Part shown: one piece after another, positions 1,738 through 64,000 of the stretch
Layout: each line of letters begins with the position of its first letter
How positions within the stretch are numbered: position 1 is the stretch's first letter
NCBI GenBank assembly: GCA_965204745.1
Contig: OZ242010.1
Span: 4,160,001-4,224,000 of the forward strand
Direction: 5' to 3'
Origin: Candidatus Latescibacterota bacterium
GTDB lineage: Bacteria > Latescibacterota > UBA2968
DNA: 64,000 nucleotides
Notes under the pieces: generated by a model
What the model saw: the letters and a program-made list of their open reading frames with translations, nothing else
What the model was told of the DNA's origin: nothing
Databases searched by the model: none
Position numbers and translations under genes: made by a program

Positions 1738-1824
1738 TATGTGCAGTAATTGGTTGCGGACTCAACTGAATCTGCGTACCATCCGTTAGTCAGAAATGGC
1801 AGAATGCACACGGGAGCCGACGGC

Positions 1825-12991: not shown

Positions 12992-13146
12992 GTTGTCAGT
13001 TGTCAGTTGTCAGTTGTCAGTTGTCAGTTGTCAGTTGACTAATTCTAACGAACATAGCGGTGGGGAGCGAGCGGGGACTGACCACTGACTACTTGGGTGG
13101 TAGGGTCAGGTGGGGGCTGACCACTGACTACTGTCAGTTGTCAGTC
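12992..13146. repeat. (GTCAGTT)n heptamer array plus ~118-bp dispersed element C
   Basis: About 6 heptamers, followed by a near reverse complement of 48042-48159 / 48599-48716. Confidence 0.85.
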
Positions 13147-13289
13147 CACCCCGCTCCATCAGGCCCCCGTGCTTGTCCTCTTATCCGGCAATGGAAACTG
13201 ACTGCTCCTTCTCCTTGACTTCCCGCATCCAAATCCCTACCATGCTGACCGCGATGCCAGTGCCGAATCCTCGAGTCTCGTCTTTTGCT

Positions 13290-14018
13290 ATGACTACCGT
13301 TCTGCGTCTCAACATCTGGAGCGGCCCTCGAAACGTCTCGACCGCGCTCATGTATGCCTTCGCGCAACGGGCTGACACCTGCGTCATCGACGAACCCCTC
13401 TACGGTCACTACTTGCGCGTGTCTGGTGCCAAACACCCGGGCGCACGCGAAGTCATGGCGCACATGGACTGCGACGGGGAAAACGTCATTCGCAACATCG
13501 TACTCGGCCCATCACCTCGTCCGGTGCTCTTCATGAAACAGATGGCCCATCACCTCGTCGAAATTGACCGCGACTTCTTCAACCACACGCACAACATCCT
13601 GCTCACGCGCGACCCCATCGACATGTTGCCCTCACTCGCCAACCAACTCGCCACGCCCACCTTGCGCGACACCGGCTACAAAATGCAGGCCGAACTCTTG
13701 CAAACCTTTCGCGCCATCGGTCAAAATTACCCGGTCCTCGACGCCCGCGAACTACTCAAAAATCCGCAACGCGTACTCGCAAAACTCTGCGATGCCCTGA
13801 ACCTGCCCTTTGACCCGGCCATGCTCACATGGCAGGCAGGCCCTCGGCCCGAAGACGGTATTTGGGCAAAACACTGGTATCACAATGTCCACAAATCCAC
13901 GCGCTTTCAGCCCTATCGCCCCAAACCCGACCCCTTCCCCGAGCACCTGCGCCCGCTCCTCAATATCTGCCAACCCCATTACGACCAACTCTACGCCCAT
14001 GCCATCAAAGCGGAATAA
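13290..14018 (+). CDS. sulfotransferase-like P-loop protein (BCAT-associated family)
   Basis: WSGPRNVSTALMYAFAQR, DEPLYGHYL, FMKQMAHH, DGIWAKHWY. Confidence 0.85.
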   Translation: MTTVLRLNIWSGPRNVSTALMYAFAQRADTCVIDEPLYGHYLRVSGAKHPGAREVMAHMDCDGENVIRNIVLGPSPRPVLFMKQMAHHLVEIDRDFFNHTHNILLTRDPIDMLPSLANQLATPTLRDTGYKMQAELLQTFRAIGQNYPVLDARELLKNPQRVLAKLCDALNLPFDPAMLTWQAGPRPEDGIWAKHWYHNVHKSTRFQPYRPKPDPFPEHLRPLLNICQPHYDQLYAHAIKAE

Positions 14019-26492: not shown

Positions 26493-26525
26493 CCAAACAT
26501 CTCCTCTCGTTTAGCCACGAGGAGC

Positions 26526-26558
26526 AAAAAAGCGAGCGATACTCCCGTGCTCGCTCGC
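26526..26558 (-). terminator. intrinsic terminator
   Basis: Minus strand GCGAGCGAGCAC...ATCGCTCGC followed by TTTTTT. Confidence 0.6.
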
Positions 26559-26769
26559 CTCACGTTATTCTCCTCAATCGCTACTGCGCGTTTCGAGTTC
26601 AAACCCCGAGCGGCTTCCACTCAGACACGCCTAAACTCGCTACAAATATCGGGAATGCGAATACTGCCCCAGCAGTTTTGGGTCAACTCAGCAGACTCTG
26701 GCGGAAACGCGCCATGTGTAATGGACTCATTGGTCGGATCACGGAGCACGGCACTCATCCTAACTTTGA

Positions 26770-26872
26770 AAAAATAAATACAGGGACACCTGAAGGCATC
26801 CCTGTAAAAAAATGATAATAATCGAGCTACCGTTAATCCTGTCTGCCAGGCGGTATCTCGATGGGTTTTAAT
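26770..26872 (-). ncRNA. candidate ~100-nt small RNA
   Basis: Own TTGACA-17-TACTGT promoter (26906-26878), a long hairpin at 26821-26862, a 12-bp terminator stem at 26779-26806 with U tract, and no ORF. Confidence 0.45.
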
Positions 26873-26976
26873 ATAAAACAGTAACTAATCCTCCTATATT
26901 TGTCAACAACTAATCCTCCTGCGTTTGTCACCATCCCATCGGGTAATTTTTCTTTGATTGTACGCTGCGTTGTAGG

Positions 26977-27822
26977 CTACGCCTGTGCGCGCTTTTTGTC
27001 GCGTATGGTAAAAAAGTGTTGCATCGATTTTATTCGCATTTCTGCTGCCTCGTAGTATTCTCGTTCCACTTCGATGCCGATGAATTTTCTACCGACTTCG
27101 AGCGCGGCGATACCCGTAGAACCAACGCCCATGAACGGGTCGAACACCGTGTCATTTTTATCGGTGGCGATGTCGATCAGGTGCTTTAATAGTTTGATGG
27201 GCTTTTGCGTTGGGTGCTTGGGATGCGCGAGTCTTTCCGGCCCCATACATATCGGCGATTCAAAAAAATTGTGCATTTCGCTTTGTTTGCCAAAATTCCA
27301 TACATGTCCCTTGTTCCACATACAAACGATGAGCTCACAACTGTTCAAAAAGCCCGCCTTTCTAAACTTGGGAACGGGATTGGTTTTATGCCAAACAAAA
27401 AACTGAAAGGTATCAAAAATGGGATCGAATATTTCATGCCATCTGCCGATCAAATTATACGAGCAGAATGCAAAGATATTTCCCGTCGGTTTTAGAATCC
27501 GCACGAAGTCGTCTTTCAGATCGGCCGGGTCAAAGTTTTTATCCCACTCGGCGAGGTCATTGTTTATATCAGATCGCCAATCGAATTTGATATTTCCCGT
27601 CGAATACGGACTCAAGTTATAGGGCGGATCTGTCAAAATAAAATCGACGGAATTATCGGGCATGTCTTTCATCGCATGGAAGCTGTCTGCATGGATCAAT
27701 TTATAGGTGCCGTCGGGGTCATCGACTTGACCTACGTGACGCGCTTCAAACCCCGTCGCGTATGCTTCAACGGAACTCCGCACGATTTGACGGACGGACT
27801 TTTGGGCATCAACTGTTCTCAT
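26977..27822 (-). CDS. beta-class amino-DNA methyltransferase with N-terminal restriction-endonuclease-like stub
   Basis: ILTDPPY, HPTQKP, FDPFMGVGSTG; the first ~39 aa resemble the N-terminus of TdeIII-family REases. Confidence 0.85.
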   Translation of the reverse strand: MRTVDAQKSVRQIVRSSVEAYATGFEARHVGQVDDPDGTYKLIHADSFHAMKDMPDNSVDFILTDPPYNLSPYSTGNIKFDWRSDINNDLAEWDKNFDPADLKDDFVRILKPTGNIFAFCSYNLIGRWHEIFDPIFDTFQFFVWHKTNPVPKFRKAGFLNSCELIVCMWNKGHVWNFGKQSEMHNFFESPICMGPERLAHPKHPTQKPIKLLKHLIDIATDKNDTVFDPFMGVGSTGIAALEVGRKFIGIEVEREYYEAAEMRIKSMQHFFTIRDKKRAQA

Positions 27823-27914
27823 CTGTTCTCTCCGCAATACTCGCTTGACCGAATCCGCCAAGTGTCCGTCAACTCCAACGCCACAATCGACACCTTCGCC
27901 ACGTTATTCTCCTC

Positions 27915-28124
27915 TCACCGCTCCCATTCGATATGGTCGTTGATACCGTACTTCTCGTAGAGATTCAAAACATCCGTGCAAAAATCCATTATTTTTGCGT
28001 CTCCCTCTGCTTTCGCAACCTCGTATAAACGGATAAACATTCTCTTGGCGGTCTCTGTCTGGTCGAGAAATTCTTGGCTGAAATCACGCGAAGTACGCTC
28101 GGTTTGTTCATTTTTAATCCACAT
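27915..28124 (-). CDS. small hypothetical protein
   Basis: 69 aa with a strong AAGGAGG RBS, co-oriented within the RM operon. Confidence 0.65.
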   Translation of the reverse strand: MWIKNEQTERTSRDFSQEFLDQTETAKRMFIRLYEVAKAEGDAKIMDFCTDVLNLYEKYGINDHIEWER

Positions 28125-28176
28125 GGCTTGCTACCTCCTTTGTGTTTATCCAAGGGTGTTGGCGATTTTCATAGGA

Positions 28177-28866
28177 CTACTGGCTTTCGCCTATGAGTTG
28201 CTTGAAATCCTCAATGAAATGCTCAAACAGTTTGACTTTATCGCTTTCCTCAATGTCTGCCTCTGTTAGCACATAACTACCATCGAGGTCAACCTCTACA
28301 ATAGCTCTTCCCTTTTTTGCAGGAAATTTACTCGTCAAAGTTCCATCTTCATCAGGGGTGATAAAATAGACCTTGATGTGTTTCGTAAATTCATCTGCCA
28401 GAAGTTTGAGTTTCCAATATCCCGTTTGGGCAATTCGCTCTCGCAATGTAACTTTGATTGAGAGGAGAGCGATTATCCTCTGGTTTTTAGGATTGTAAAC
28501 GGCGATATCAACATCGGGTAGATGTAACCCAAATTCGTTGAAATCAACGGCCAAATTTCGCTTAACTCGCTTCAGGTCTTGCGGCAGGTTTTTCCGTCTC
28601 TCCAAGTGATTGCCATTAATCACCTTCATGCCGAGGGCTTCAATGGAATCTGTGATAATATGTTGGATCAATTTTTCAAAATTCTTTCCCTTAAAAGCAC
28701 GCCAACTCTGTTCATGATCACCATAGGGTTTATCTTCCAAAAAATCCTGCTTATGACGCTCTTTGGCATCCCGTAAAAGTTGGGAAACCGATTTGTAGGC
28801 TTTCGCCCCCTCCATCACCAGCGTCTGCCTGTACATATCTCTTAAATCCGAAAAATCCATGGTCAT
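28177..28866 (-). CDS. BsaWI-family type II restriction endonuclease
   Basis: QSWRAFKGKNFEKL, LPDVDI...SIKVTLRERIAQTGYWK (PD..SxK with CCGG-family RER). Confidence 0.82.
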   Translation of the reverse strand: MTMDFSDLRDMYRQTLVMEGAKAYKSVSQLLRDAKERHKQDFLEDKPYGDHEQSWRAFKGKNFEKLIQHIITDSIEALGMKVINGNHLERRKNLPQDLKRVKRNLAVDFNEFGLHLPDVDIAVYNPKNQRIIALLSIKVTLRERIAQTGYWKLKLLADEFTKHIKVYFITPDEDGTLTSKFPAKKGRAIVEVDLDGSYVLTEADIEESDKVKLFEHFIEDFKQLIGESQ

Positions 28867-30207
28867 CTACTCCTTTAAGCCGATAACGATATACTCCGTT
28901 GGATACGCTTCTGAATTTGCCTTATCGTTGCTCGCAAATCTACCCGTTTTTTTATCGCGTTTCTGTGGGAGTATCTTGAGAGGAATTTCCCGTTTTATGA
29001 GCCGATCCAGTTTGAAGCCCGAGTGTTGCAGGGACTCGGCAAATGCTTCGGCATTGCGTATATCAACGCCCTTTAGCTTCGTATTCCCGATGACATAGCA
29101 ACACCTACCTCCCGGTTTCAAGATTCTAAAACTCTCATCGAAGACCTCCTGCATATCTATAAAAAAGGCTTCAATTTCTTTTGCCTTTTTTTTGTTTTTA
29201 GACACCATTTCGTCGACAATGTCAGAGGCAATCTGACTGGATAGCGACTTGGATTCGTACTGTTTATAGGATGTCCCAATGAACTGTTTTCTGTACTCTT
29301 TTAGATCATCAGCTAAATCTAGCCAGAGTGTTGAAAGTTGATGGAGGTCTGCATATTCGTAACTCGTCACATAAGGGCTTGAACTGACAATTAAATCGAC
29401 GCTGTCAGCGGGAACTGCTTGGGCCTTGGCTGAACTTATTTGGACGTTTAGGTAATGCTCCAGATTCTCTTTTATAGGAGATGGAACGACTTCGTAGAAA
29501 TAGGCATTTCCTTTTAGCATTTTTGACAGATGCCTTTTAATCGCATCAGCGGGAGGCGTGGGCCGCTTCTTCATATCCCTTGTCGGTTTCGTACTGCTCT
29601 GGCTCCAAATTGAACATGTTTTGAGAACGTGACTCAACGCGACTAAAAAGAAAGACCGAATGGCTCGGTCAGGTTCATCGAAAATTAAGACGAGAATTTT
29701 CCCTATTTTATTCCGCGCTTCTTCCGTGAACCAGTAGTCAATTCGTTCTAAGTGTTTTTCTGGAATTTGAGGTTGTATTTCATTTTGAAAAAAAAGGCAA
29801 CCTTGATCGTCATCGCGGAACTCACAAATTTTTGACAGAAACAGTTTCGCTTTTTTTTCTAAATAGTCGGGCTTGATAGGCGTTGCTTTCGCTTTGGTTA
29901 CCAAATGGGCGACTTTATTTATATCTGTGCCACTAGCGTGGAGACCTCTTGATATCGCGCTGACAATCGTCGTTCCAGACCCCATGAATGGGTCGTTTAT
30001 GCTCGCCGACCCATTGGTGATATAGCAATCCATCAGTTGCTCTACCAACTGCGGAATAAACTTGGCGGGATACCGGTGGTAGCCATGCGTCCATTTCCCG
30101 GTGTCTGATGGCTTGCATCCGTTGAACGACCAAGCCTTATCAACGGGGGTCTGGTTAAACCATTCGAGAATCTCATTGGGAGACATAAATGAACCTCCAT
30201 TGCTCAA
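28867..30207 (-). CDS. alpha-class N4-cytosine DNA methyltransferase
   Basis: THGYHRYPAKFIPQ, N-terminal DPFMGSGTT, C-terminal motif IV reading SSPY-VTSYEYADLH. Confidence 0.88.
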   Translation of the reverse strand: MSNGGSFMSPNEILEWFNQTPVDKAWSFNGCKPSDTGKWTHGYHRYPAKFIPQLVEQLMDCYITNGSASINDPFMGSGTTIVSAISRGLHASGTDINKVAHLVTKAKATPIKPDYLEKKAKLFLSKICEFRDDDQGCLFFQNEIQPQIPEKHLERIDYWFTEEARNKIGKILVLIFDEPDRAIRSFFLVALSHVLKTCSIWSQSSTKPTRDMKKRPTPPADAIKRHLSKMLKGNAYFYEVVPSPIKENLEHYLNVQISSAKAQAVPADSVDLIVSSSPYVTSYEYADLHQLSTLWLDLADDLKEYRKQFIGTSYKQYESKSLSSQIASDIVDEMVSKNKKKAKEIEAFFIDMQEVFDESFRILKPGGRCCYVIGNTKLKGVDIRNAEAFAESLQHSGFKLDRLIKREIPLKILPQKRDKKTGRFASNDKANSEAYPTEYIVIGLKE

Positions 30208-30227
30208 AGCGGTTTATGTGCTACAAA

Positions 30228-30890
30228 CTATTGCAGGTCCTCTGTAATCCGTTCAAGTCTTCGGAGATTGTGTTGCTCAACAAAATTTTCGCGCAGAATA
30301 TATGCGACATCCAATTCGTGCAACACAATGGCTTTGCTCTTGTCGATTTTCTCATTTTCTAAGGTCTTGTCTTTATCAGGCGTGAGAAAGAACATTTTGA
30401 TGTGTCGCGTAACAGGGCAGGAACGCAACCTTAACTTCCAATATGCGGTTTGGGCAATGCGCTCGCGTAGCGATATCTTACAGGAAATAATGGCTTTTAC
30501 GGAGGCATCAGAAGGATCGTACACGACGATATCAGCATCCGGCATGTGGCACCCATAAATGCCTAAATCAACTAAAATATTGCGCTTAACTTTACAAAGT
30601 ATTGTGTCATTTTGTTGTTTTTCAAGAATTGAGCCTCGAATCAACTCGAGCGGGATCCCTGCATCGTCGATCAGTCTCGAGAGAATGTGGATCATGAGCT
30701 TCTCGAAATTCTGACCATTCCACGAACGCCACGATTGACCCATGTCACCTTTGAAATCATCTTTCTCCTTTTCCCGCACGTACAATTTTTCGACTTTCTC
30801 CAAAAAGGTGGGCAGATTTTCGTAGGCTTTTGGATTGCGTTTGACCTCTTCGTCGTAGAGATCCTGAAGGTCTTCAAATTTAAATGGCAT
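30228..30890 (-). CDS. second BsaWI-family restriction endonuclease
   Basis: QSWRSWNGQNFEKL, MPDADI...SCKISLRERIAQTAYWK. Confidence 0.8.
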   Translation of the reverse strand: MPFKFEDLQDLYDEEVKRNPKAYENLPTFLEKVEKLYVREKEKDDFKGDMGQSWRSWNGQNFEKLMIHILSRLIDDAGIPLELIRGSILEKQQNDTILCKVKRNILVDLGIYGCHMPDADIVVYDPSDASVKAIISCKISLRERIAQTAYWKLRLRSCPVTRHIKMFFLTPDKDKTLENEKIDKSKAIVLHELDVAYILRENFVEQHNLRRLERITEDLQ

Positions 30891-30906
30891 TTAGGTAACT
30901 CCTTTG

Positions 30907-31170
30907 TCATTTCGTCAAGGATGGCGAAGTATCCCCGCGCTTGTCATTGGATTCTTCTGCGCGGAGTTTTTTTAGAAGATCAATCCAAACTGCAGCCTTG
31001 ATCACTGTTTCCAGTACATGATCTACGATGATCCATTTTTGTATAACCTCGCTCCAATACGCTCTTACATTGGGAGTGGTAGCCTCTTGAATCTGTATGC
31101 GTACCCAATCTATATCTGTTGCCAGTGATCTCCGGTACTCCTTAAGGTCAATTATTACTTTTTTATTCAT
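30907..31170 (-). CDS. small hypothetical protein (first gene of RM operon)
   Basis: 87 aa with AAGGAGG RBS; TTGACT/TATTGT promoter-like elements upstream. Confidence 0.6.
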   Translation of the reverse strand: MNKKVIIDLKEYRRSLATDIDWVRIQIQEATTPNVRAYWSEVIQKWIIVDHVLETVIKAAVWIDLLKKLRAEESNDKRGDTSPSLTK

Positions 31171-31411
31171 CTACGCCTCCTTTTGAACTGTTGCCACAAT
31201 ATCACTACAAGAGATATCAAAGTCAATTATTGTTTTGCGATTCATCAACGCCTTGACGAGACGGCTATCCTCGCCATATCCCAGGGTATCATTGAGAATA
31301 TTCTCATTTCCTACGGGAGAGTACATATCATCCTCCTAAAATGTCGCGCTTAACGTTGCAAAGCACAGCGCGGGATTTCGGTATTGCAGCCATCCGCCGA
31401 TCCTCTCTCAT

Positions 31412-32425
31412 TCACATCTCTGCGAGTTTGGCGATCAGATCCACGCATCGGTTGGAGTATCCCCACTCATTGTCGTACCACCCGCACACTTTCACCATGT
31501 TGCCGGCCATGACGGTTGTGATCATCGAATCGAAAATGCACGAATGGGCATTGCCCACGATATCGGCGGACACGATGGGGTCCGCGGTGTATTCCAAAAT
31601 GCCTTTCAACCGCCCCTGTGCGGCCTGCTCGAAAGCGCGGTTGACCTCGGTTGCGGTGACCTCTTTTTGCAACACCGCGACAAAATCGGTAAATGACCCA
31701 TCCGGCGTGGGCACGCGCACGGCCATGCCGTCGAGTTTGCCATTGAGTTCGGGAATCACCAGGCCCACGGCACTCGCCGCGCCCGTTGTGGTCGGAATCA
31801 TCGACAGGGCCGCAGACCGCGCCCGCCGCATGTCCGAATGGGGCGCGTCAATGAGGCGTTGATCGCCCGTATAAGCGTGAATGGTGGTCATCAAGCCGTG
31901 GTCAATGCCAAACGACGCGTGCAACACACTCACCATCGGCGCCAAACAATTGGTCGTACACGAGGCATTGGAAATCACCGTGTCGCCTTTTTGCAACACA
32001 TCGTCGTTAATGCCCATCACCACCGTGGGCAAATCCCCTTTGGCGGGCGCGGAAATGATCGCCTTTTCGGCGCCATTTTCCCCCAGATGGGCCTGCGCGG
32101 CCTCCTTGTCCGTGAAAAAGCCCGTGGATTCGACCACCACCTCCACGCCCAAGGCGCGCCAGGGCAACTGGCCGGGATCGCGTTCAGACAACACCGCCAC
32201 GGCTTTGCCATCCACCACGAGCGCGTCGTGCCCTTCGCCCGTGCGATGCGCCACTTGCCCGGGATACCGCCCGTGCGTGGAATCGTATTTGAGCAAATGC
32301 GCCAAACTCGCGGCATCGGTCAAGTCATTGACCGCCACCACATCTACGCCCCGGGCCATTGCCGCGCGAAACACCAACCGCCCAATCCGTCCAAATCCGT
32401 TGATCCCCACTTTCAGTTCCGCCAT
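31412..32425 (-). CDS. gap: glyceraldehyde-3-phosphate dehydrogenase type I
   Basis: [27 protein letters not shown]. Confidence 0.98.
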
Positions 32426-52787: not shown

Positions 52788-54371
52788 ATGAACGACGCAC
52801 AACAACCCATCAATGCCCTGCCCCAAGGGTATCGGCTCCAGGAATATGAACTGGTGCGCGTGCTCGGTTTTGGGGGATTCGGCATGACGTATTTGGGTTT
52901 TGACCACAACTTGGACAAAGCCGTGGCGATCAAGGAATATCTGCCTTCGGATATCGCCATCCGCACAAGCAATAACAGCGTCGTGCCGCAGGCGAGCGAG
53001 TTTCAAGGCGACTTTGAGTGGGGCCTGGAACGCTTTTTGGACGAAGCGCGTACCTTAGCCCGATTTGACCATCGCCATCTCGTCAAGGTGCATCGCTTTT
53101 TTGAAATGCACAACACGGCGTATATCGTGATGGAATACGCCGAGGGCGAGACTTTGTCCGAGTATCTCAACCGCAAAGGGGTGCTAACCGAATCAGAACT
53201 CAAGGCGATTCTGCATCCGATTCTCAAGGGCTTGGCGGCGGTGCATCGTGCAGATTTTCTGCATCGGGACATCAAACCTGGCAACATCGTCATTCGCGCC
53301 GAGGATCGCTCGCCTGTGTTGATCGACTTTGGCGCGGCGCGGCAAGCGGTGGGTGCAAAGAGCCGTTCTGTGACCTCCATTGTGACTCCGGGCTACGCGC
53401 CTATCGAACAATATGAAAGCCGGGGCAATCAAGGGCCTTGGACAGATATTTATGCGTTGGCGTGCGTGTGCTATCGCGCCTTGACCGACGATGTGCCGAT
53501 TCCGGCAATGGATAGGGTGCGCCGCGATCCGCTGATTCCGGTTTCGGATCGGTGCAAGGGCCGTGCGAGCCACCAATTTCTCGCCGCCATCGATCACGCG
53601 CTACAAGTAGATGAGACTGCCCGTCCGCAAACAGTATCCGAATGGCGCGCCGAGCTGGGCGACACGCCTGTTGATGTTCCGCCGCCGGTTCCGGCTCCGC
53701 AAATCTCGTCACCGTACGTTGTTGAGCATCCTGAGCCTGCACACGCTCAAGAACCGGTTAAGGAATACAAGGGATTTAGCCGCGTGATGTGGATCGCCTT
53801 GGGCGTGCTTATGCTCGTGTTTATGGTCCTTGAAATTTCTGATTATGTTGAGGAACAACGCAAAGCAGAGATTGCACGCCAAGAGGAAATTGCGCGCCAA
53901 GAAGAATTAGCACGTAGGAGGGCAGAGGAAGCAAGAAAGGCGGAAGAAGCAAGAAGGGCAGAGGAAGCAAGAAGGGCGGAGGAAGCAAGAAGGGCAGAGG
54001 AAGCAAGAAGGGCGGAGGAAGCAAGAAAGGCAGAGGAAGCAAGAAAGGTTGAAATTCCCGATGCCAACCTTCGTGCTGTGATTGAGTACGAGTTGTACAA
54101 GGCACGCGGTGCGCCGATCACACGGGCGGACATGACGCACCTGACGCGGATAGAAGCGTCAGATGCGCGCATTAATGATTTGACAGGGCTTGAGTTTGCA
54201 ACCGGGCTGACAGGCTTAAGCCTTCCCTTCACCCAGATATCGGATATCGCCGCGCTATCGGGATTAACCAACCTGATATCGTTAGACCTTTACGACAACC
54301 CGTTGAGTGCCACATCAATCAACACGCACATTCCGGCCCTTCGGGCCAGAGGGGTTTCGGTGGATTTTTAG
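52788..54371 (+). CDS. Hanks-type Ser/Thr protein kinase with TM helix, EEARRA repeats and internalin-like LRR
   Basis: LGFGGFG, AIKE, HRDIKPGN, DFG; TM helix; 18-bp repeats; VEIPDANLRA...LSGLTNLISLDLYDNPL. Confidence 0.93.
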   Translation: MNDAQQPINALPQGYRLQEYELVRVLGFGGFGMTYLGFDHNLDKAVAIKEYLPSDIAIRTSNNSVVPQASEFQGDFEWGLERFLDEARTLARFDHRHLVKVHRFFEMHNTAYIVMEYAEGETLSEYLNRKGVLTESELKAILHPILKGLAAVHRADFLHRDIKPGNIVIRAEDRSPVLIDFGAARQAVGAKSRSVTSIVTPGYAPIEQYESRGNQGPWTDIYALACVCYRALTDDVPIPAMDRVRRDPLIPVSDRCKGRASHQFLAAIDHALQVDETARPQTVSEWRAELGDTPVDVPPPVPAPQISSPYVVEHPEPAHAQEPVKEYKGFSRVMWIALGVLMLVFMVLEISDYVEEQRKAEIARQEEIARQEELARRRAEEARKAEEARRAEEARRAEEARRAEEARRAEEARKAEEARKVEIPDANLRAVIEYELYKARGAPITRADMTHLTRIEASDARINDLTGLEFATGLTGLSLPFTQISDIAALSGLTNLISLDLYDNPLSATSINTHIPALRARGVSVDF

Positions 54372-54473: not shown

Positions 54474-56915
54474 ATGAATTTCGATCACTTCATCACACAG
54501 GTTCGCCGAGACTACGGATATGCGGGGCAGGTCGTGCATGTGGAAACCCTGCCCGCGCAAGACGCGCTGTTTGCCGATGATGACTGCGCGCTGCATCCGG
54601 CGATTGCCGATGCGTTGACGCAACAGGGCATTGATCGGCTCTATACGCATCAGGCCGAGGCCATGTCCGCACTGCGGCGCGGGGAACACATTGTGGTGGT
54701 GACGGCGACGGCGAGTGGCAAGACCTTGTGTTATCAGATTCCGACATTGGAAGCCCTGTTGGACGATCCGCACGGCACCGCGCTATATCTCTTTCCGACC
54801 AAAGCACTGGCGCAGGATCAAGCGCGGGGCCTGGCGCGGTTCGGCGACTTGAACGCGCAGTTGAAGTTTGCGATGGGGACTTATGACGGGGACACGCCGT
54901 CCAATCTCCGCAAGACATTGCGCGAGGAAGGGCGGGTGATTTTGAGCAATCCGGATATGGTCCACGGCGGGGTGTTGCCCAATCATCCACGGTGGGCGCG
55001 CTTTTTTCAGCACTTGCGCCTCGTGGTCTTGGATGAAATCCACACGTATCGCGGGGTGTTTGGCTCGCATGTCGCCAATGTGTTGCGCCGCCTGATGCGA
55101 ATTTGCGCGCACTACGGCGCGCATCCGCAAGTCGCGTGTTGCTCCGCGACCATCGCCAATCCCAAAGCACACGCCGAGGCATTGACCGGCAGGCCGATGT
55201 CCCTGATCGACCGGGATGGATCGCCGCGGGGCAAACGGCAATTCGTGTTCTGGAACCCGCCTTTTTTGCAGGGGTCGACGAGTGACCGGCGCAGTTCAAA
55301 TACCGAGGCGCGGTGGTTGCTCGCCAAACTCATCCACAACCGGGTGCAGACCATTGCGTTTGTGCGGGCGCGCACGGCTGCCGAGGTGCTCTACCGCTAT
55401 GCCCAAGAGGATTTGTCCCGCGTGAACCCGGTGTTGGCCGGCGCGATTCGGGCGTACCGCGGCGGGTACTTGCCGTCTGAACGCCGGGAAATCGAGCAAC
55501 TGTTGTTCGAAGGCGCGCTGTTGGGCGTGGTCAGTACCAATGCGTTGGAGTTGGGCATCGACATCGGCAGCCTAAATGCGGCGTTGATCGTGGGGTACCC
55601 GGGCAGTGTGTCCAGCATGTGGCAACAAGCGGGGCGCGCGGGCCGCTTGTCCGAGACGGCACTGGTGGTTTTCGTGGCGCACAACGCGCCTATCGACCAA
55701 TTTTTGATGCGCGACCCGGCCTATTTTTTTCGACAATCACCCGAACACGCGACTATCGATCCCGACAATCCGCATCTCGTCGTTGGGCATCTGCGCTGCG
55801 CGCTACGCGAGTTGCCCATCCGCGGCGAAGAGGGCGAGGTGATGGGCGAGTTCACGGGCGCGCTGTTGGAGATTTTGTCGGACGAGGGCATGGCGCGGCA
55901 GATCGACGGGCAGTGGTTTTACAGCCGCGGCGGGTACCCTGCCGCAGAGATGGACTTACGCAACATCGGCGAGCCGACCTATGCGATTGTGGCAGACGCC
56001 GCCGAAGGCCCGCAGGTGATCGGGGCCTTGGACGAAATCAGCGCGTTTTTTCAGGTGCATACGCACGCGGTTTATTTGCACAACGGGCAGACGTATTTCG
56101 TGGATCACCTCGACACAGCGCGCAAAATCGCCCGGGTAACTCAAAAGGCGTTGGACTATTACACGCAGGCGGTTGACGAGACGCGCATTGCCGTCAATGA
56201 CGCGGAGGTGTCGGGCGCGTGGCGCGTGAGCGAGGTGTGTTTTGGCGAGGTGTCCGTGTCGTCTTTGGTGACGATGTTCAAGAAGGTGAGGTTCGAGGAC
56301 CGCGACAGCATTGGGTGGGAAAATATCGACCTGCCCGAGCGCACACTCGATACCGCGGCCTGCTGGGTCGTGCCCCCGCAAGCAGGGCTGAATCAGTGCC
56401 GGCAGTACGGGCGCGTGCCATCCGAGGGCCTAAAGGGCATCGCCAATGTGATGGGCGAGGTATTGCCCCTGTTTGCGATGTGCGACGCGATAGATATCGG
56501 CACGACGGTCGAGAGTTCCAACACGGGCCGGCCCACGGCCTTTGTGTACGACCGGTACCCGGGGGGGATCGGGTTTGCCGAAAAGGCCCATGAGATGATC
56601 GAAGACGTGATGACGGCGTGTTGGATGGTGGTGTCCGAGTGCGAGTGCGACGAGGGATGTCCCTCGTGCGTGGGCGCGCCCTTGCCCCCCGGCGGCGATG
56701 GCAATACCCGAGGGGCCATTCCAGACAAAGAGGCCGCGCTCGTTTTGCTACACGCGATGTTGGAAAAAGAGCCTTATGTGCCGCGCCAGCCGCGCCGCGC
56801 GTTTTCCCGTGCAGGGGATGGCACCGAGCGGGTTCATGCGGCGATACCGGTGCGGCCCTTGGCGGCAAATGTCGAGGCGAAAATTCGGAAAAAAGTAAAG
56901 GGGTTTCGGCGATGA
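54474..56915 (+). CDS. DEAD/DEAH-box helicase with DUF1998 (MrfA/YprA/SftH-like)
   Basis: TATASGKT, DEIH, SAT, QQAGRAGR, C-terminal YDRYPGGIG and CECDEGCPSC. Confidence 0.93.
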   Translation: MNFDHFITQVRRDYGYAGQVVHVETLPAQDALFADDDCALHPAIADALTQQGIDRLYTHQAEAMSALRRGEHIVVVTATASGKTLCYQIPTLEALLDDPHGTALYLFPTKALAQDQARGLARFGDLNAQLKFAMGTYDGDTPSNLRKTLREEGRVILSNPDMVHGGVLPNHPRWARFFQHLRLVVLDEIHTYRGVFGSHVANVLRRLMRICAHYGAHPQVACCSATIANPKAHAEALTGRPMSLIDRDGSPRGKRQFVFWNPPFLQGSTSDRRSSNTEARWLLAKLIHNRVQTIAFVRARTAAEVLYRYAQEDLSRVNPVLAGAIRAYRGGYLPSERREIEQLLFEGALLGVVSTNALELGIDIGSLNAALIVGYPGSVSSMWQQAGRAGRLSETALVVFVAHNAPIDQFLMRDPAYFFRQSPEHATIDPDNPHLVVGHLRCALRELPIRGEEGEVMGEFTGALLEILSDEGMARQIDGQWFYSRGGYPAAEMDLRNIGEPTYAIVADAAEGPQVIGALDEISAFFQVHTHAVYLHNGQTYFVDHLDTARKIARVTQKALDYYTQAVDETRIAVNDAEVSGAWRVSEVCFGEVSVSSLVTMFKKVRFEDRDSIGWENIDLPERTLDTAACWVVPPQAGLNQCRQYGRVPSEGLKGIANVMGEVLPLFAMCDAIDIGTTVESSNTGRPTAFVYDRYPGGIGFAEKAHEMIEDVMTACWMVVSECECDEGCPSCVGAPLPPGGDGNTRGAIPDKEAALVLLHAMLEKEPYVPRQPRRAFSRAGDGTERVHAAIPVRPLAANVEAKIRKKVKGFRR

Positions 56916-59077: not shown

Positions 59078-59328
59078 GCTATGACGCGGTACGAAACAAA
59101 GACTCAGAGAAACTGGGAGAGAAAGCAACAAGCATTCAAGGCAACACTGCGGCGTTGCAATGCCGTTGCACGCGAAGAATACCCCTGTGCTCAAATCTTC
59201 GTCAGTTCATTGGCCTCATCTTCTAATGCGTCTCGATAGTGCGAACGGGTTGACATTGGCCCCAAACCGCTCGTTGCGTGCGGCGTAGAGCCTATCGCGT
59301 GTCCTGTGGGGTTCGAGTTAAACGCCTG

Positions 59329-59508
59329 TTAAGGGACGGATACTGCACGTATTTTCGGCTTTTTTGCCAACTCGTTACGCAATGCACGAGACTGGTGCCG
59401 GTAGAACGCCAACCGCTCTTTTATCGTTCTGTCCTTGAGTTGCTCATGGTGTTCATCTCGAATACGGCGCACCATCTCAACCGCATCAAACGTTTTTTTC
59501 GCGCCCAT
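59329..59508 (-). CDS. 59-aa partner of PIN protein (putative antitoxin)
   Basis: Read by hand (below ORF cut-off): MGAKKTFDAVEMVRRIRDEHHEQLKDRTIKERLAFYRHQSRALRNELAKKPKIRAVSVP; overlaps the PIN stop. Confidence 0.7.
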   Translation of the reverse strand: MGAKKTFDAVEMVRRIRDEHHEQLKDRTIKERLAFYRHQSRALRNELAKKPKIRAVSVP

Positions 59509-59962
59509 AGTTGGTCACCTCGCGCGGAGAGTAAATCTGTAACGGTTTATAGCCAAGTTCCATGTTCACGGCGGTGAACATGCGTATCTTATCGAAGTGT
59601 ACAATGTGTTTGAAGTTCCAGCTAACCAATACATCTACTTCTGCGACCGAAGCCAAGGCGATATGCAACGCATCATCGAAAAAGTTGGTCGTCAGAATCC
59701 GCCTCTTTAGGTAGGTTTCAGCAAGTTGCACAGCTTCCACTGTGACGTTGAGAAATTCAGGATTCAGAGTCAAAAGTTTCGAGTAGATATCTCTAACAGG
59801 CTCAGGAGCATCTCGGATCTCTGCGTCAACGACTTCAGATACAACCGGCCTGAAGTTGCCCAAACGGAAATCCTTCATCAGCCCGTTTGACCAAGGGGCG
59901 AACTCATCGTCATGGGAGCCGCCAATGACAGAAGTATCAATATATACGCGCTGTAATTTCAT
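59486..59962 (-). CDS. PIN domain (VapC-like) protein
   Basis: VYIDTSV, E in VVDAEI, DDALHIA, LVSWNFKH. Confidence 0.9.
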   Translation of the reverse strand: MKLQRVYIDTSVIGGSHDDEFAPWSNGLMKDFRLGNFRPVVSEVVDAEIRDAPEPVRDIYSKLLTLNPEFLNVTVEAVQLAETYLKRRILTTNFFDDALHIALASVAEVDVLVSWNFKHIVHFDKIRMFTAVNMELGYKPLQIYSPREVTNYGREKNV

Positions 59963-60028: not shown

Positions 60029-60913
60029 TTAGGGCATCAGGAGAAGAATCATGCGAATAAGAGCAAAAAGCCGATGAAAGAGATAATCGACATGCTCACT
60101 TTTGGCGAGTGGTTCTTGATCCGTTTCAGAATGGCGTATTTGGAAGCGATTGCCGATCTTCGTCAGTTCTTTGGCCTCCCTCTCCAATGATTCTCGGAAT
60201 TTGGGAGAGGATGGGCCGGCCGTGCGATCAAGGCGAGACGTGATCTGCGCCTTCTTGTCCGATCCGTCGCCCAGCGTCTTTAGCCGCTCCCACGCATCCC
60301 ATAGAGACTCTAAGGCTTCACGGCGTATTGCCTCGTCGGAGTCGGAAAATTTGCGCTTTGCCACATCCAACATACGATTAAGTTCAGCATCGCCCGTACT
60401 AAACTCAATCGAAGCAAGTTCCTCGCGTAGTACGGACGGCGCGAGTCGTTCGATTTCGCCTTGCCATGTGAGTTCGTAGGCGAGGCCGTTACGGCGAAAT
60501 ATCCGATTGATGTCATCTCGAAATTCGGCCTGACCGGCTTCGATATCGAAGTCCAGATGATCGTGCTTAAAAAATTCGTGATACCCGTTGCGGATGGACT
60601 TGCCAATACACCGCCAGCAGAACTCAATCATGTCGAGGATATCCAGGGTTCGCGGTGGCTTTTTATCCTCCCAAGGGTCATCCTCCTTTTCTTGCAAATT
60701 CGGGATATCGGCTTCCATAGCCAGTCTAAAGGCCCTTTTATCGGTACCGATAATTGCTCCACCATCCTCGCAAAGAATTGGATATTTTGCACCGAATGAA
60801 CCGTCATCAATCCGGGCCTGGATAAGAACCTCGATACCCTTCCATACGGGGTTGCTGATTTCTTCGTTTTCTCGGGGAGTTTCTCCTTCTTCTCGCTCAC
60901 TGAAATACATCAT
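60029..60913 (-). CDS. AbiJ-NTD4 plus HEPN-like domain protein
   Basis: YFSERE..., DGSFG..YP..CEDG, INRIFRRNGLAYEL, LWDAWERLKT, GNRFQIRHSE. Confidence 0.78.
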   Translation of the reverse strand: MMYFSEREEGETPRENEEISNPVWKGIEVLIQARIDDGSFGAKYPILCEDGGAIIGTDKRAFRLAMEADIPNLQEKEDDPWEDKKPPRTLDILDMIEFCWRCIGKSIRNGYHEFFKHDHLDFDIEAGQAEFRDDINRIFRRNGLAYELTWQGEIERLAPSVLREELASIEFSTGDAELNRMLDVAKRKFSDSDEAIRREALESLWDAWERLKTLGDGSDKKAQITSRLDRTAGPSSPKFRESLEREAKELTKIGNRFQIRHSETDQEPLAKSEHVDYLFHRLFALIRMILLLMP

Positions 60914-61338: not shown

Positions 61339-62511
61339 CTACATATCCTTCTTTGCCTCATTGACTATGTAATCAATCGCTCCAGCCATCTCTTGACGGC
61401 GGGAGAATAATGTGCCATTCGGATTTACCAGTTTGGCATCCACTAGCAAGCCGTGTTCACTCTTGCGGCCTATCGAGGCTTTACGGATGAACTCTGCCAG
61501 AGGCTTCCAAGAATCATACTTATTCTCATTCATCCATAGATGGTAACATCCGGCAAGTACTCGAACAAACGTAACGTTATAGGCGAATGTTATGGCACGT
61601 AATTCAGGGATTTCCGGATTGTCTATCTCGCCGGACAGGAAGCCGCTATATTCCTCTCTGGTAGCAGGCATGAATTGGTCTGACCAGACACGGCAACGGT
61701 TGCATAGATCATCAAAGTTCTGCATCTGCATATAGTGTTCATTGAGATCTCGGCTGACACGTTTGCCATAGCCAACTGCCAAGCTCTTTAAGATTGTTGC
61801 CAGTTGATTGATGGCCAAGAGATGTTGGCTGGATGTAGCCACCGAGGAGCGTTCCATCTCCACTCTCCCCTTGAACACGCGACTATTATCGGCGAGCCAG
61901 ACTGCCACCCGGTTGAAAGCGTCGCGCTGGTCGAATCTTGTAACGGTGTTGCTTTCGATGCGCTTGGTCTTCGACGCGTCCACGAACATCTGCCGCAATG
62001 TCTTGATATCATCCTCTGCGTAGAGGACGACGGTCATTGAAGCTTTTCGCAATGATTCCAACTTGTCGGCACGCCGATCCGCATTCGATAGCTCGTCGAG
62101 AACATCTTGTATAGCGCGCCGTCGATGTTGACCGTCGAATATCCGCATGGTGTTGGCACGATTGGCACGGATACACAACTCACCGAAGTTTGGATTGTCC
62201 GACTCGCCTTGTTCATTAAGGTAAGGCTTGAACTCCAACGCGTCGAGCGCAATCCCAAGCATCAGTGCTCCCAGCAACCAATCGTCTTTTTCCGCTAGGT
62301 ATCTTTGAATGTTTCTCGCATGGCTGGGCGTAAGGCGGCGGTTGGCATCTCTGACCATGCTATCATCCACGCGCTGTGGTAGCAGGCCATCGAGCGTCTC
62401 AAAATCGAGTGCAAAATAATACACATCACGGCCACCCTGATGAAACCGGTGCGCGGGGACACGCAGACTGTATTGATTGTTTATAGGGCGTATGTTCAGT
62501 GCCATTTTCAA
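61339..62511 (-). CDS. DndB / DGQHR domain protein
   Basis: QGGRDVY, ANRRLTPSHARNIQRYL, FDGQHRRRAI, QMFVDA. Confidence 0.88.
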   Translation of the reverse strand: MKMALNIRPINNQYSLRVPAHRFHQGGRDVYYFALDFETLDGLLPQRVDDSMVRDANRRLTPSHARNIQRYLAEKDDWLLGALMLGIALDALEFKPYLNEQGESDNPNFGELCIRANRANTMRIFDGQHRRRAIQDVLDELSNADRRADKLESLRKASMTVVLYAEDDIKTLRQMFVDASKTKRIESNTVTRFDQRDAFNRVAVWLADNSRVFKGRVEMERSSVATSSQHLLAINQLATILKSLAVGYGKRVSRDLNEHYMQMQNFDDLCNRCRVWSDQFMPATREEYSGFLSGEIDNPEIPELRAITFAYNVTFVRVLAGCYHLWMNENKYDSWKPLAEFIRKASIGRKSEHGLLVDAKLVNPNGTLFSRRQEMAGAIDYIVNEAKKDM

Positions 62512-62540
62512 ACCTCCAATTTTTTGTGGCGATAACTGAC

Positions 62541-64000
62541 CTAAGCGATGCTCGCTTCTGCCTGCTGTATGATGTAATTGATCGCTTGGACTACAGGCCC
62601 TTGTTGCGCGATTGGAGAAATGCCTCCGGGTGCAACCACGCCTGCGTCCACCAAGAGAGAACCTTTATTTATGCCCGGTTTCAGTGAGGCCCCCCGGAGA
62701 AAGTCTGCCAATGGTTTCCAATCGCGACCGTCTTTTATCCATTCGTGATAGCAACCGGCAAAAATCCGGATAACCGTGGCGTTATACGCCATAGTTTCGG
62801 CACGCTTCTCCGGGATGTCGGAGTTGTCAATCTCGCCAGCCATAAGATCGTTGTATTCAATTCGGGCAGCAGGCATAAAATCGTCGGCCCACGTCAAGCA
62901 ACGCTCGTACAGCGAGTCAAGGTCCAGCATGTATGCGTCGTTGCGATCCTTGCTAACACGACCTTTGTAGCCAACCTCTAAGGTTTTCAGTGTTATCGCC
63001 AATTGGTTGATGGCAATTATATTGTGACTACTCCTGGGAACAGAAACACGCTCCATCTCAACGCGCCTGACAAATAGGTCACTATTTTCCTCAATTTGCA
63101 ACGCGACCAGGTTGAAAGCGTCTCTCTGGTCGAATCTGGTTACTGTATTTCGTTCTATGGACCTGGTTTGTGCCGCGTCTGCGAACATCTGCCGTAGGGC
63201 ATCGATGTTGTCTTCGGCGTACAGCATGATGGGCAGAGAATCTTTTTTGAAGTCTGAAAGTTTTTTATTGCTCGCGTTATGGGAAAGAGTTTGGAGCGCG
63301 TCCTTGATAGCGCGGCGGCGGTGCTGGCCGTCGAACATCTTCATGCTATCAGTACGGTTGGTGAAAATAGTGAGTTCTCCTACGGAGGTTTCGGCATCAG
63401 AATCAGGCATATATGAATCGAAACTCACATCGTCCGGGGATATCCCTAGTAACAGCGTTCCCAGCAACCAATCGTTTCGGTTCTCCAGATATTCTTGAAT
63501 TTTCTTTGCGTGGCTTGGTGTCAGAGGGCGGTTAGCGTCCTTGACCACTCTATCATCCACGCGGTCAGGTAGCAGGTTATCGAGGGACTTAAGATCCAAC
63601 GTGAAGGCGTACACGTCACGTCCGCCCTGCCGGAACTTATGAGCCGGCGTCTTAAAAGGCATCAGCTCACTCCTGATATTTTCCACAGTTTGACTCCGCT
63701 TAGACTCGTTAATCTCCTTGAGCACGCCGGCAATGTCGGTTAAACGATCCACAGCGTACTCCAGTTCAATATCTTGGTTGCCGGGGTGCGACACCTTATT
63801 GCGTGCATCGGTAATCGCATACAGGGCCTCCAAAGGTTTGCTCCCGTGCTTAAAGGCATTGTGGAACACATCCCGCCAATAGACCTTAACAAGGTGCGGA
63901 AATTCATTGATGTCTATTGTCTCCTCAATGCTTCGGCCCTCGTGGAGGTTCTGTTCGAATTGGTTGTACTGACCATCTCGCAACACAGATCTTATGCAGT
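62541..64000 (-). CDS. Swt1-like HEPN fused to DndB/DGQHR domain (5' end beyond window)
   Basis: D..F..LV..YWRDVF...ARNKVSHP (RxxxxH), then FDGQHRRRAI; the frame stays open to base 64000. Confidence 0.85.
   Translation of the reverse strand, partial: CIRSVLRDGQYNQFEQNLHEGRSIEETIDINEFPHLVKVYWRDVFHNAFKHGSKPLEALYAITDARNKVSHPGNQDIELEYAVDRLTDIAGVLKEINESKRSQTVENIRSELMPFKTPAHKFRQGGRDVYAFTLDLKSLDNLLPDRVDDRVVKDANRPLTPSHAKKIQEYLENRNDWLLGTLLLGISPDDVSFDSYMPDSDAETSVGELTIFTNRTDSMKMFDGQHRRRAIKDALQTLSHNASNKKLSDFKKDSLPIMLYAEDNIDALRQMFADAAQTRSIERNTVTRFDQRDAFNLVALQIEENSDLFVRRVEMERVSVPRSSHNIIAINQLAITLKTLEVGYKGRVSKDRNDAYMLDLDSLYERCLTWADDFMPAARIEYNDLMAGEIDNSDIPEKRAETMAYNATVIRIFAGCYHEWIKDGRDWKPLADFLRGASLKPGINKGSLLVDAGVVAPGGISPIAQQGPVVQAINYIIQQAEASIA

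Follow-up and report, generated by a model that had tools for sequence, protein, structure and literature searches.

What might a pair of adjoining DGQHR/DndB-type genes do where no dnd or dpd genes accompany them, and could the pair be a defence system of its own? The question is raised by a stretch of 64,000 nucleotides from a Candidatus Latescibacterota bacterium (GenBank assembly GCA_965204745.1, contig OZ242010.1, positions 4,160,001 to 4,224,000 of the forward strand), called here the window, in which two genes, A and B, adjoin each other on the minus strand within the last 2.7 kb. An original prediction, made from the letters alone, had proposed them as a candidate defence system in which a DndB-type heteromer gates an RNase domain of the HEPN family carried by A. 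Our answer, given tentatively and at slightly less than even confidence, is that A and B together make up an independent, laterally mobile module of two genes, directed against phages or other mobile elements and working as a switch; a defence or conflict function of some kind we consider rather probable.

The list of open reading frames (ORFs) gives A as 62541..63998 with an open 5' end (485 codons in the window) and B as 61339..62511, with a TTG at 62511. The 5' end of A had been expected to lie outside the window, and this was borne out: a protein search retrieved P0001, a protein of 528 aa that is 100% identical to the in-window part of A and supplies the 43 missing N-terminal residues. 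We place the true start of B at the ATG at 62505, because a GGAGG stands 7 nt ahead of it and because the MALxI N-termini of homologues match; indeed, 23 of 25 homologous loci have an ATG at the matching position, and the N-terminus is mostly of the MALxI type. The features of the pair are the following, with residues of A numbered as in P0001.

62541..64000, minus strand, running past the window edge: gene A, with HEPN_Swt1, DGQHR/ParB-like and C-terminal helical domains
63663..64000, minus strand: Swt1-like HEPN domain of A, portion inside the window (residues 44 to about 155; Pfam)
63786..63803, minus strand: HEPN catalytic motif RNKVSH, of the Rx4H type (R109-H114)
62958..63647, minus strand: DGQHR/ParB-like domain of A (DndB, PF14072; residues 161-390; Pfam E 3.1e-39)
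63309..63332, minus strand: DGQHRRRA motif of A (D266-A273)
62544..62957, minus strand: C-terminal, mostly helical domain of A (residues 391-528), common to B
62506..62540, minus strand: A-B spacer, 35 nt, with GGAGG 7 nt ahead of the ATG of B
61339..62505, minus strand, stop codon included: gene B, DGQHR/ParB-like paralog without HEPN, 388 aa
62113..62136, minus strand: DGQHRRRA motif of B (D124-A131)

Both proteins match the Pfam DndB family PF14072 far above its cut-off of 29.1 bits (in-window A 135.8 bits, expectation value (E) 2.5e-39; B 147 bits, E 9.3e-43) and pass the DGQHR model TIGR03187 (101.9 bits for A and 103.9 for B, cut-off 58.85). The N-terminal HEPN domain that had been read in A, with an intact RNKVSH, was confirmed on the complete protein: the in-window fragment scores 17.4 bits against HEPN_Swt1 (PF18731; E 0.0057), under the Pfam cut-off of 27.5, whereas full-length P0001 passes it with 29.7 bits (E 8.4e-7, residues 17-139), and relatives of A match at E 1e-10 to 1e-12. 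Residues R109, N110 and H114 are invariant in all 32 aligned members of the A family; of the 117 full-length members among the best 120 of 898 matches, 114 have RNxxxHP, and of the three that lack it, two are gene calls that run too long. The DGQHRRRA motif, presumed from its sequence to be a nucleotide-phosphate-binding loop, is invariant in the aligned A (n=32) and B (25/25) proteins and occurs in each of those best 120 of 898 members.

The two adjoining, co-oriented genes are paralogs, as had been noticed from the motifs QGGRDVY, DANRxLTPSHA, FDGQHRRRAI and NTVTRFDQRDAFN, each of which is found in both. Their proteins agree in 198 of 375 residues (53% identity, E 6e-137), a likeness that by sequence comparison is far above chance, and the paralogy can also be seen in the DNA itself, in repeats that are 70-73% identical. 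The 35-nt spacer with its GGAGG suggests that both genes belong to one operon. Aligned families of A and B have 96 columns with the same residue at 90% conservation or more, DGQHRRRA included, and only eight positions that are fixed differently. Since B keeps every conserved core residue, it is no decayed copy, and the function of the ParB-like core, whatever its nature, is probably open to both subunits. AlphaFold models add a little: that of A (mean predicted local distance difference test score, pLDDT, 68.7; predicted template modelling score, pTM, 0.43) is confident for the HEPN part only, where residues 11-150 are all helical (block pLDDT 75-94), and shows helices in the C-terminal domain, and that of B reaches a pLDDT of 72.8 and a pTM of 0.59. 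A fold search of the A model against BFVD gave three matches at E<=0.001, one of them named DUF262, followed by GmrSD N-terminal-domain proteins (E 0.013-0.025, TM scores 0.15-0.27); these matches agree with the fold assigned from sequence and add little to it. Against PDB sequences, P0001 had no phmmer match at E<=1 and the B-family profile had chance matches only (E>1).

Is the pair a unit beyond this one genome? A scan of one genome per species (185,579 species) with peptide patterns taken from A gave 29 related loci, which are close relatives (45-76% identical) and come mostly from metagenome-assembled genomes of Dehalococcoidia and other Chloroflexota, with two loci from Latescibacterota, one from Nitrospinota and two from Caldilineaceae. 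The tandem A-B pair is present in 25 of the 29, so that the conservation anticipated for the two-gene architecture is found in this set, distributed as follows.

Intact HEPN-bearing A followed by B: 17 loci
A split by an insertion sequence (IS) transposase between HEPN and core, followed by B: 1 locus (L009)
HEPN-less A followed by B: 7 loci
Single gene: 2 loci (L020, L025)
Truncated single gene: 1 locus (L022)
Degraded copy: 1 locus (L029)

The HEPN-less pairs keep both paralogs and all motifs, and the idea that HEPN is the core of the system had to be given up. No separate HEPN gene was found in these loci by tblastn at E<=1e-5, and three ORFs upstream of HEPN-less pairs have no NCBIfam match. 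The existence of HEPN-less pairs shows that the core must also produce some output itself or work with a different partner. A search for longer proteins gave no fused A-B protein; the two proteins of 701 aa that it returned resemble B and continue at the C-terminus in a region without assignment.

A maximum-likelihood tree of 54 sequences (support given as ultrafast bootstrap/SH-aLRT) places the A cores in one clade (26 rows, 100/99) and the B proteins in another (26 rows, 96/81). Within A, the HEPN-bearing proteins, with the IS-split copy among them, make up one clade (19 rows, 100/99), and the branching of the A partners is mirrored by that of the B partners, even inside the HEPN-less group. 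Distance matrices of A cores and B proteins are correlated over 26 pairs (r=0.857; Mantel 0/2000) and over the 19 HEPN-type pairs (r=0.69). Separate, mirrored clades with correlated distances indicate that the duplication is old and that the two genes have been inherited and transferred together; this co-divergence is evidence of co-inheritance, not of physical contact between A and B.

Resemblance to DndB makes it necessary to ask whether the pair belongs to a Dnd or Dpd system. PADLOC-DB 2.0 matched A, B and P0001 with DndB and DpdB protein models only (E<=0.01 or 0.001). The equivalog models stay far out of reach: A and B score 66.9 and 69.4 bits with DndB TIGR03233 (cut-off 328), and 33.3 and 31.9 bits with DpdB NF041060 (cut-off 300). 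Identity of A and B to DndB is about 24-28%; when the B-family profile was compared with Salmonella DndB by hhalign, B residues 11-240 aligned over about 210 columns (probability 98%, 28% identity), and the C-terminal 150 residues gave no alignment. As to partner genes, none of the 42 other ORFs of the window matches a Dnd, Dpd or Ssp modification model of PADLOC, Pfam finds no Dnd model in 116 flanking ORFs of the 29 loci, and Salmonella DndC, DndD and DndE have no tblastn match at E<=1e-3 in the window and the related loci, searched up to 10 kb around the pair (656,651 bases in all); Salmonella DndB, used as query on the same bases, finds the A and B genes themselves (55 high-scoring segment pairs). 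The absence of dnd and dpd genes that had been stated for the visible side of the pair is therefore seen in the whole window and in all 29 loci by PADLOC, Pfam and tblastn; in the related loci no canonical dnd or dpd operon lies upstream, and the pair is conserved there. We consider it very probable that the A/B cassette is autonomous and has no part in DNA phosphorothioation or deazaguanine modification. One locus, L023, has a tRNA-guanine transglycosylase (TGT) gene (12797-13999) that begins at the last base of the B ORF, stop included, an arrangement seen once in 29 loci that recalls DpdA-DpdB. As a DpdA-like partner this gene was rejected, its product being the housekeeping Tgt equivalog (484.4 bits, cut-off 306.75).

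The wider family has two sides, according to whether it is approached from the whole protein or from its parts. The A-family search returned 898 proteins at E<=1e-3; the best 120 of these are 62-100% identical, 112 of them have both PF14072 and PF18731, and the sole name given by the source among them is 'DGQHR domain-containing protein'. When 1.84 billion representatives were searched exhaustively, 932 matched at E<=1e-3, 96 of them at E<=1e-30. The Swt1-type HEPN head also occurs in other proteins, at 41-50% identity to A residues 5-157, and is joined there to different domains: among 28 scanned proteins the partner is DUF499 in three, DUF4268 in three, and a uracil-DNA-glycosylase fold, Mrr_N and DUF7662 in one each, and there are also fusions to unassigned regions (those with the first four domains are P0188, P0237, P0266, P0230, P0234, P0243, P0249 and P0260). 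Judged from these architectures, the head behaves as a portable effector module placed on DNA-related domains. The core (44-59% identical) is found in turn with a C-terminal Mrr_N (P0129), a HARE helix-turn-helix (HARE-HTH; P0131), a weak KorB helix-turn-helix match (P0126) or unassigned extensions, and most of these extended forms score slightly nearer B than A. A constant core on which effector heads and DNA-reader tails are exchanged is typical of conflict systems, and suggests that the core reads DNA. An ESM Atlas search with P0103 gave DndB-type clusters only and no structure.

Plasmid (PLSDB) and phage collections contain no close relative of the pair: the 46 plasmid and 23 phage records found have 23-26% identity, and none of these DGQHR/DndB records covers 80% of the query. 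Three of the plasmid genes stand alone (L030 6941-8224, L031 7037-8341 and L032 8959-9855), are named 'DndB' or 'DGQHR domain-containing protein' and have no dndCDE within 7-9 kb; the Edwardsiella and Sulfitobacter copies lie beside psiA, antirestriction, ParB and strawberry-notch genes, in a surrounding that resembles a leading region. Annotation of such solo plasmid 'DndB' genes as sulphur-modification genes looks unsafe. In a Salmonella dndBCDE locus (L033), a second 'DGQHR domain protein' gene (15998-17053, minus strand) lies on the opposite strand about 2 kb past dndE.

All-against-all clustering of ORFs from the 29 loci revealed a single conserved neighbour, a family of superfamily 1 (SF1) helicases of 755-808 aa that stands beside the pair in five loci.

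L009 12345-14711: SF1 ATPase, downstream, overlaps B
L013 12840-15134: SF1 ATPase, downstream, overlaps B
L019 12876-15197: SF1 ATPase, downstream, overlaps B
L017 7441-9867, minus strand: SF1 ATPase, upstream, divergent
L026 7571-9838, minus strand: SF1 ATPase, upstream, divergent

PADLOC describes this helicase as GajB/UvrD-like, and its nearest NCBIfam models are HelD/HelR (182-206 bits, below the 419 cut-off), which are RNA-polymerase recycling motors. All five helicase loci have a B with an acidic, Trp-ended tail that is found in none of the 20 other B proteins, the window's own included. This tail may be a docking peptide, perhaps similar to the docking tails of single-strand-binding proteins. 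Since the window's B lacks it, we predict that no helicase lies upstream of the window's A.

Several observations bear on mobility. In 22 of 25 loci the pair is poorer in G+C than the sequence on either side of it (mean -5.8 points); for the window's own pair and flanks the values are 0.50 and 0.57, and the low-G+C stretch starts near 59.2 kb. Nitrospinota and Latescibacterota copies nest among those of Chloroflexota. In L009, gene A (7820-11116) is split between HEPN and DGQHR by an IS with a DDE_Tnp_1_4 transposase (8552-9874, opposite strand), and this copy is a natural knock-out of the HEPN-DGQHR fusion; together with L022 and L029 it makes three decayed copies, a pattern typical of defence genes. 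Low G+C, cross-phylum nesting and the three decayed copies add up to the signature of a mobile accessory cassette. As boundary markers of an island, no tRNA was found at 50-64 kb of the window and no Rfam family at 58-64 kb, and promoter and terminator scans gave no excess over shuffled expectation.

The genes around the pair were surveyed with two ORFs on each side of every locus (116 ORFs). Pfam assigns mostly housekeeping functions, with some toxin-antitoxin (TA) modules (HicB, HigB with HTH, TumE) and transposases. PADLOC, run on 112 of the 116, finds defence or candidate models in six ORFs from five of the 29 loci (raw count):

L003 neighbours: HEC-02A and HEC-02B
L005 neighbour: PDC-M44B
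L014 neighbour: CBASS-type cyclase fragment
L015 neighbour: PDC-S34
L017 neighbour: PDC-S44

How could such a pair work? We propose a module that arose when a DGQHR-type ParB/Srx-fold protein, which would bind nucleoside triphosphate (NTP), was duplicated long ago. A and B would associate physically, bind or scan DNA, and together work as a switch controlled by nucleotides, a role for which the ParB-like domains of SspE, GmrSD/BrxU, DndI and Menshen NsnA offer a parallel. A foreign cue, which may be DNA that invades the cell or is modified, or else a change in the nucleotide pool, would alter the state of the switch; this would juxtapose or unmask the N-terminal Swt1-type HEPN domains of A, and the active HEPN would then cut RNA, so that the infected cell stops growing in the manner of abortive infection. 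HEPN sites function as dimers; two heads are needed, which makes the assembly state a natural control point. A would be the effector-bearing subunit and B a co-sensor or DNA-targeting subunit. Of the two roles first suggested for B, that of an effector-less inhibitor does not agree with the conserved columns that B keeps and the few positions at which it differs, and that of co-sensor or targeting subunit fits better, because B-like relatives carry Mrr_N and a weak KorB helix-turn-helix. This specific chain from sensor to HEPN we regard as possible but doubtful.

A bolder version of the mechanism, which we think unlikely, can be called paralog exchange: resting A-B pairing would keep the HEPN heads monomeric and silent, and NTP-dependent re-pairing or higher-order assembly, cued by foreign DNA or nucleotides, would juxtapose two A heads and fire the RNase. 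The same core might then serve other outputs as well, for instance a HelD-like motor reached through the B tail, or receive other inputs, such as Mrr_N and HARE-HTH. If true, it would be a new way to gate a HEPN nuclease, and immune sensors of the ParB-clamp type would make up a modular family.

A number of points weigh against the two-gene defence module that we favour. Support for the whole family is computational, and conservation of the pair holds for the clade of close relatives from which the 29 loci come. RNA cleavage is not a universal output, seven of the 25 pairs having no HEPN. The division into sensor and effector is not evident from the sequences, since B keeps all core motifs. 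Fold searches of the A and B models against PDB gave no match at E<=0.001, with SspE (E 0.93), BrxU (E 0.53) and a ParB-N domain (E 0.48) at chance level only. Finally, the defence-island signal is modest, most flanking genes being housekeeping, and the gene upstream of the window's own A lies beyond the window edge.

Four other explanations have to be weighed. The one that survives best takes the DGQHR pair itself as the effector, a ParB/Srx-type nickase or an NTP-degrading enzyme acting by type IV restriction or nucleotide depletion, with HEPN as an optional back-up co-effector added once, within a single sub-clade. It agrees with the HEPN-less pairs, which retain both genes and all motifs, with the single clade formed by HEPN-bearing A within the A cores, and with relatives that carry Mrr_N or HARE-HTH, typical of modification-dependent restriction proteins; furthermore, nuclease or NTP-degrading roles have been proposed for ParB-superfamily proteins including DndB, in the available portions of PMC10853773 and PMC12839542. 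However, the literature searched describes no nuclease activity of DGQHR proteins, and the HEPN catalytic residues are strictly conserved where the domain is present, which makes a primary role in that clade more plausible than a vestigial one. We consider this explanation rather unlikely as stated, and it overlaps the module with a HEPN output more than it excludes it.

A second possibility is that A and B are an addiction pair similar to TA modules, in which A is a HEPN toxin that B neutralises by forming mixed oligomers that separate the HEPN heads; the cassette would be selfish and any role against phages optional. Tight linkage in a probable operon with a 35-nt spacer, the mobile, low-G+C signature and the frequency of TA modules among the neighbours would all suit such a pair, and HEPN toxins under the control of a partner protein are known from the literature, as far as the available text goes. 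Nevertheless, an antitoxin of 388 aa that keeps every catalytic-type residue of its partner would be unlike known antitoxins, the HEPN-less pairs have no evident toxin, and B lies downstream of the putative toxin, and we find the idea quite improbable.

Could the pair instead be made of DndB-like regulators, controlling the transcription or the extent of a DNA modification encoded elsewhere in the genome? The homology to DndB across the ParB-like half speaks for it, as does the description of DndB as an ATP-modulated repressor (PMC4507180 and PMC10853773, in their available portions). Both equivalog cut-offs are nonetheless missed by a wide range of bits, the C-terminal 150 residues do not align with DndB, no dndC, dndD or dndE lies within up to 10 kb in the 29 loci or in the 64-kb window, the lone adjoining TGT is a housekeeping Tgt, and a regulator would have no obvious need of an active HEPN RNase head or of a duplicated partner; this makes the explanation very improbable. 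Lastly, a housekeeping factor of nucleic-acid transactions, for example linked to transcription or repair and without immune role, is barely credible: the helicase nearest to HelD/HelR in five loci and the mostly housekeeping flanks would suit it, but the patchy distribution, cross-phylum nesting, low G+C, decayed copies and effector-type domain shuffling would not, and neither would the finding of only 29 loci in 185,579 species (by a scan that reaches close relatives only).

Returning to the window itself, two ORFs follow the pair in the same low-G+C stretch and had been read as AbiJ-HEPN and PIN genes.

60029-60913, minus strand: AbiJ-like gene, 294 aa; AbiJ_NTD4 E 1.8e-14; PADLOC PDC-S32 E 3.5e-54, full length
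59486-59962, minus strand: putative PIN ORF, 158 aa, 66 nt after the AbiJ-like gene

The first label stands, by AbiJ_NTD4 and PDC-S32. This gene begins 425 nt downstream of B, its protein has an RFQIRH (Rx4H) motif in the C-terminal part, and it is a defence candidate separate from the pair, because it is found in none of the 29 related loci. The second label is left without a profile match in Pfam (E<=1), NCBIfam or PADLOC; the protein has no entry in the ESM Atlas, and the name PIN comes solely from the acidic-strand look of the N-terminus, judged by eye. The ORF may be co-transcribed with the AbiJ-like gene. As parts of the A/B system both were rejected as unrelated neighbours (0 of 29 loci). 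A 41-nt direct repeat (59195-59235 and 60156-60196, 80% identical) has one copy in the spacer after a transaldolase-like gene and the other inside the 3' part of the AbiJ-like gene; the idea that it is a remnant of the AbiJ gene was rejected (tblastn E 0.088).

Other loci of the window were noticed in passing.

26000-32000: second low-G+C island, 0.43-0.50 against about 0.58, probably a restriction-modification locus
26980-27861 and 28870-30207, both minus strand: type II DNA methyltransferase-like genes (PADLOC E 9e-52 and 6e-58)
15105-23879, minus strand: single ORF of 2925 aa with no PADLOC match
1750-2658, plus strand: PADLOC candidate proteins PDC-M41B and PDC-M30B (E 5e-103 and 8e-101)
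52788-54371, plus strand: Ser/Thr kinase that contains a long RRAEEARKAEEA-type repeat and is leucine-rich towards the C-terminus; PADLOC mad6 and PD-T4-6-like kinase matches
54474-56915, plus strand: superfamily 2 (SF2) helicase of 813 aa after the Ser/Thr kinase; generic BrxH/SngC/DpdF-like matches

The PADLOC matches of the kinase and of the SF2 helicase are probably generic family resemblance.

ParB-like (DUF262/DGQHR) NTPases recur in defence, in SspE, GmrSD/BrxU, DndI, Menshen, Dazbog and PD-T4-2, and their sensing and signalling are understood for few of them. The A/B cassette offers a compact two-gene case in which the same fold occurs twice, one copy with an RNase output and one without, together with natural variants that lack the RNase output and others that swap it for helicase or DNA-reader domains. 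If A and B defend the cell, DndB-type proteins can act outside DNA modification, solo 'DndB' genes should not be named sulphur-modification proteins without caution, and a tractable system becomes available in which a ParB-type nucleotide switch controls a HEPN nuclease. If they do not, they still belong to a widespread, mis-annotated family, to judge from the 898 homologues at E<=1e-3.

How new, then, is the architecture? The claim that it is no named system stands in so far as PADLOC gives DndB and DpdB only, whose partner genes are absent, and has to be qualified in so far as a Swt1-HEPN-ParB fusion was already tabulated in 2013: Table 1 of Anantharaman et al. (2013, PMC3710099) has an entry for a Swt1/Abi2-family HEPN fused to a ParB fold ('Saro_3948'), described as 'mostly active'. 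Beyond this table entry, the available text gives no paralogous partner, system or mechanism for it. In the same year, DUF262/DGQHR domains were reported, in the available portion of Makarova et al. (2013, PMC3632139), as often fused to HNH, PD-(D/E)xK or HEPN. The literature searched, the supplements of PMC3710099 and PMC10853773 aside, contains no paired DGQHR cassette, no HEPN-DGQHR fusion presented as a system and no phage-protection experiment on a pair of the A/B type; those supplements might list the HEPN-DGQHR architecture. The cassette is, on our analysis, most likely an unnamed anti-phage module.

Compared with DndB and DpdB, A and B have in common the DGQHR-type ParB/Srx-fold domain, for which both pass PF14072 and TIGR03187; they differ in missing the equivalog cut-offs, in a C-terminal domain that does not align and in the lack of dndCDE or dpdA partners here, and they are duplicated into an obligate-looking pair to which a HEPN head has been added. 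A DndB-like protein has been reported to bind ATP and GTP (preprint, available portion). The proposed logic is that of SspE, GmrSD/BrxU and DndI, in which a ParB-like DUF262 NTPase responds to DNA or DNA modification with a change of state and so controls the HNH nuclease fused to it (PMC10952713, PMC11662687 and PMC12065111, in their available portions); as far as the text available from the Menshen paper (PMC12065111) goes, these proteins and DndB also share a helical domain after the ParB-like domain. The nuclease that A would control is an N-terminal HEPN RNase, in contrast to the C-terminal DUF1524 HNH DNase of those systems, its motif is DGQHR where theirs is DGQQR, and two paralogous subunits take the place of one chain. 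Pfam finds no DUF1524 or HNH in A or B, and no PADLOC model of GmrSD, SspE, BrxU or DndI matches them at E<=0.01.

Menshen NsnA and Dazbog each have a ParB-like NTPase component that is needed for defence and is a proposed sensor (available portions of PMC12065111 and PMC10952713). The Menshen partners, an ABC/OLD-type ATPase and a variable effector, are unlike A and B, and neither Nsn nor Dzb models of PADLOC match the pair at E<=0.01. DARNA (formerly PD-T7-3) is described in the available part of a preprint as an abortive-infection tRNase that is activated by single-stranded DNA and a phage single-strand-binding protein and is an oligomer of HEPN dimers. Like A, it has an N-terminal Rx4H HEPN at a similar distance (R117/H122 against R109/H114 in A), followed by a nucleic-acid-sensing C-terminal part. 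Unlike A, it is a single gene whose product is a homo-dodecamer, with a C-terminal domain that the available text does not describe as ParB-like, and its PADLOC model PD-T7-3 does not match A.

The nearest experimentally supported combination of ParB-like and HEPN domains is PD-T4-2 of E. coli ECOR65 (Vassallo et al. 2022), which is listed with both a DUF262 and a HEPN domain and was validated against T4 in its native strain (PMC10952713, available portion). It was compared by description: its HEPN family is PF18735 rather than the PF18731 of A, and a paralogous pair is not described for it in that text. PADLOC-DB 2.0 gave no PD-T4-2 match of A or B at E<=0.01, its PD-T4-2 models being assumed present because it has models of PD-T4-4 and PD-T4-6. 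Taken together, these comparisons show that the theme of a ParB-like NTPase sensor joined to a nuclease effector is already known, and that the new features of the A/B cassette are its paralogous two-subunit core, its Swt1-HEPN head and its optional helicase with a matching B tail.

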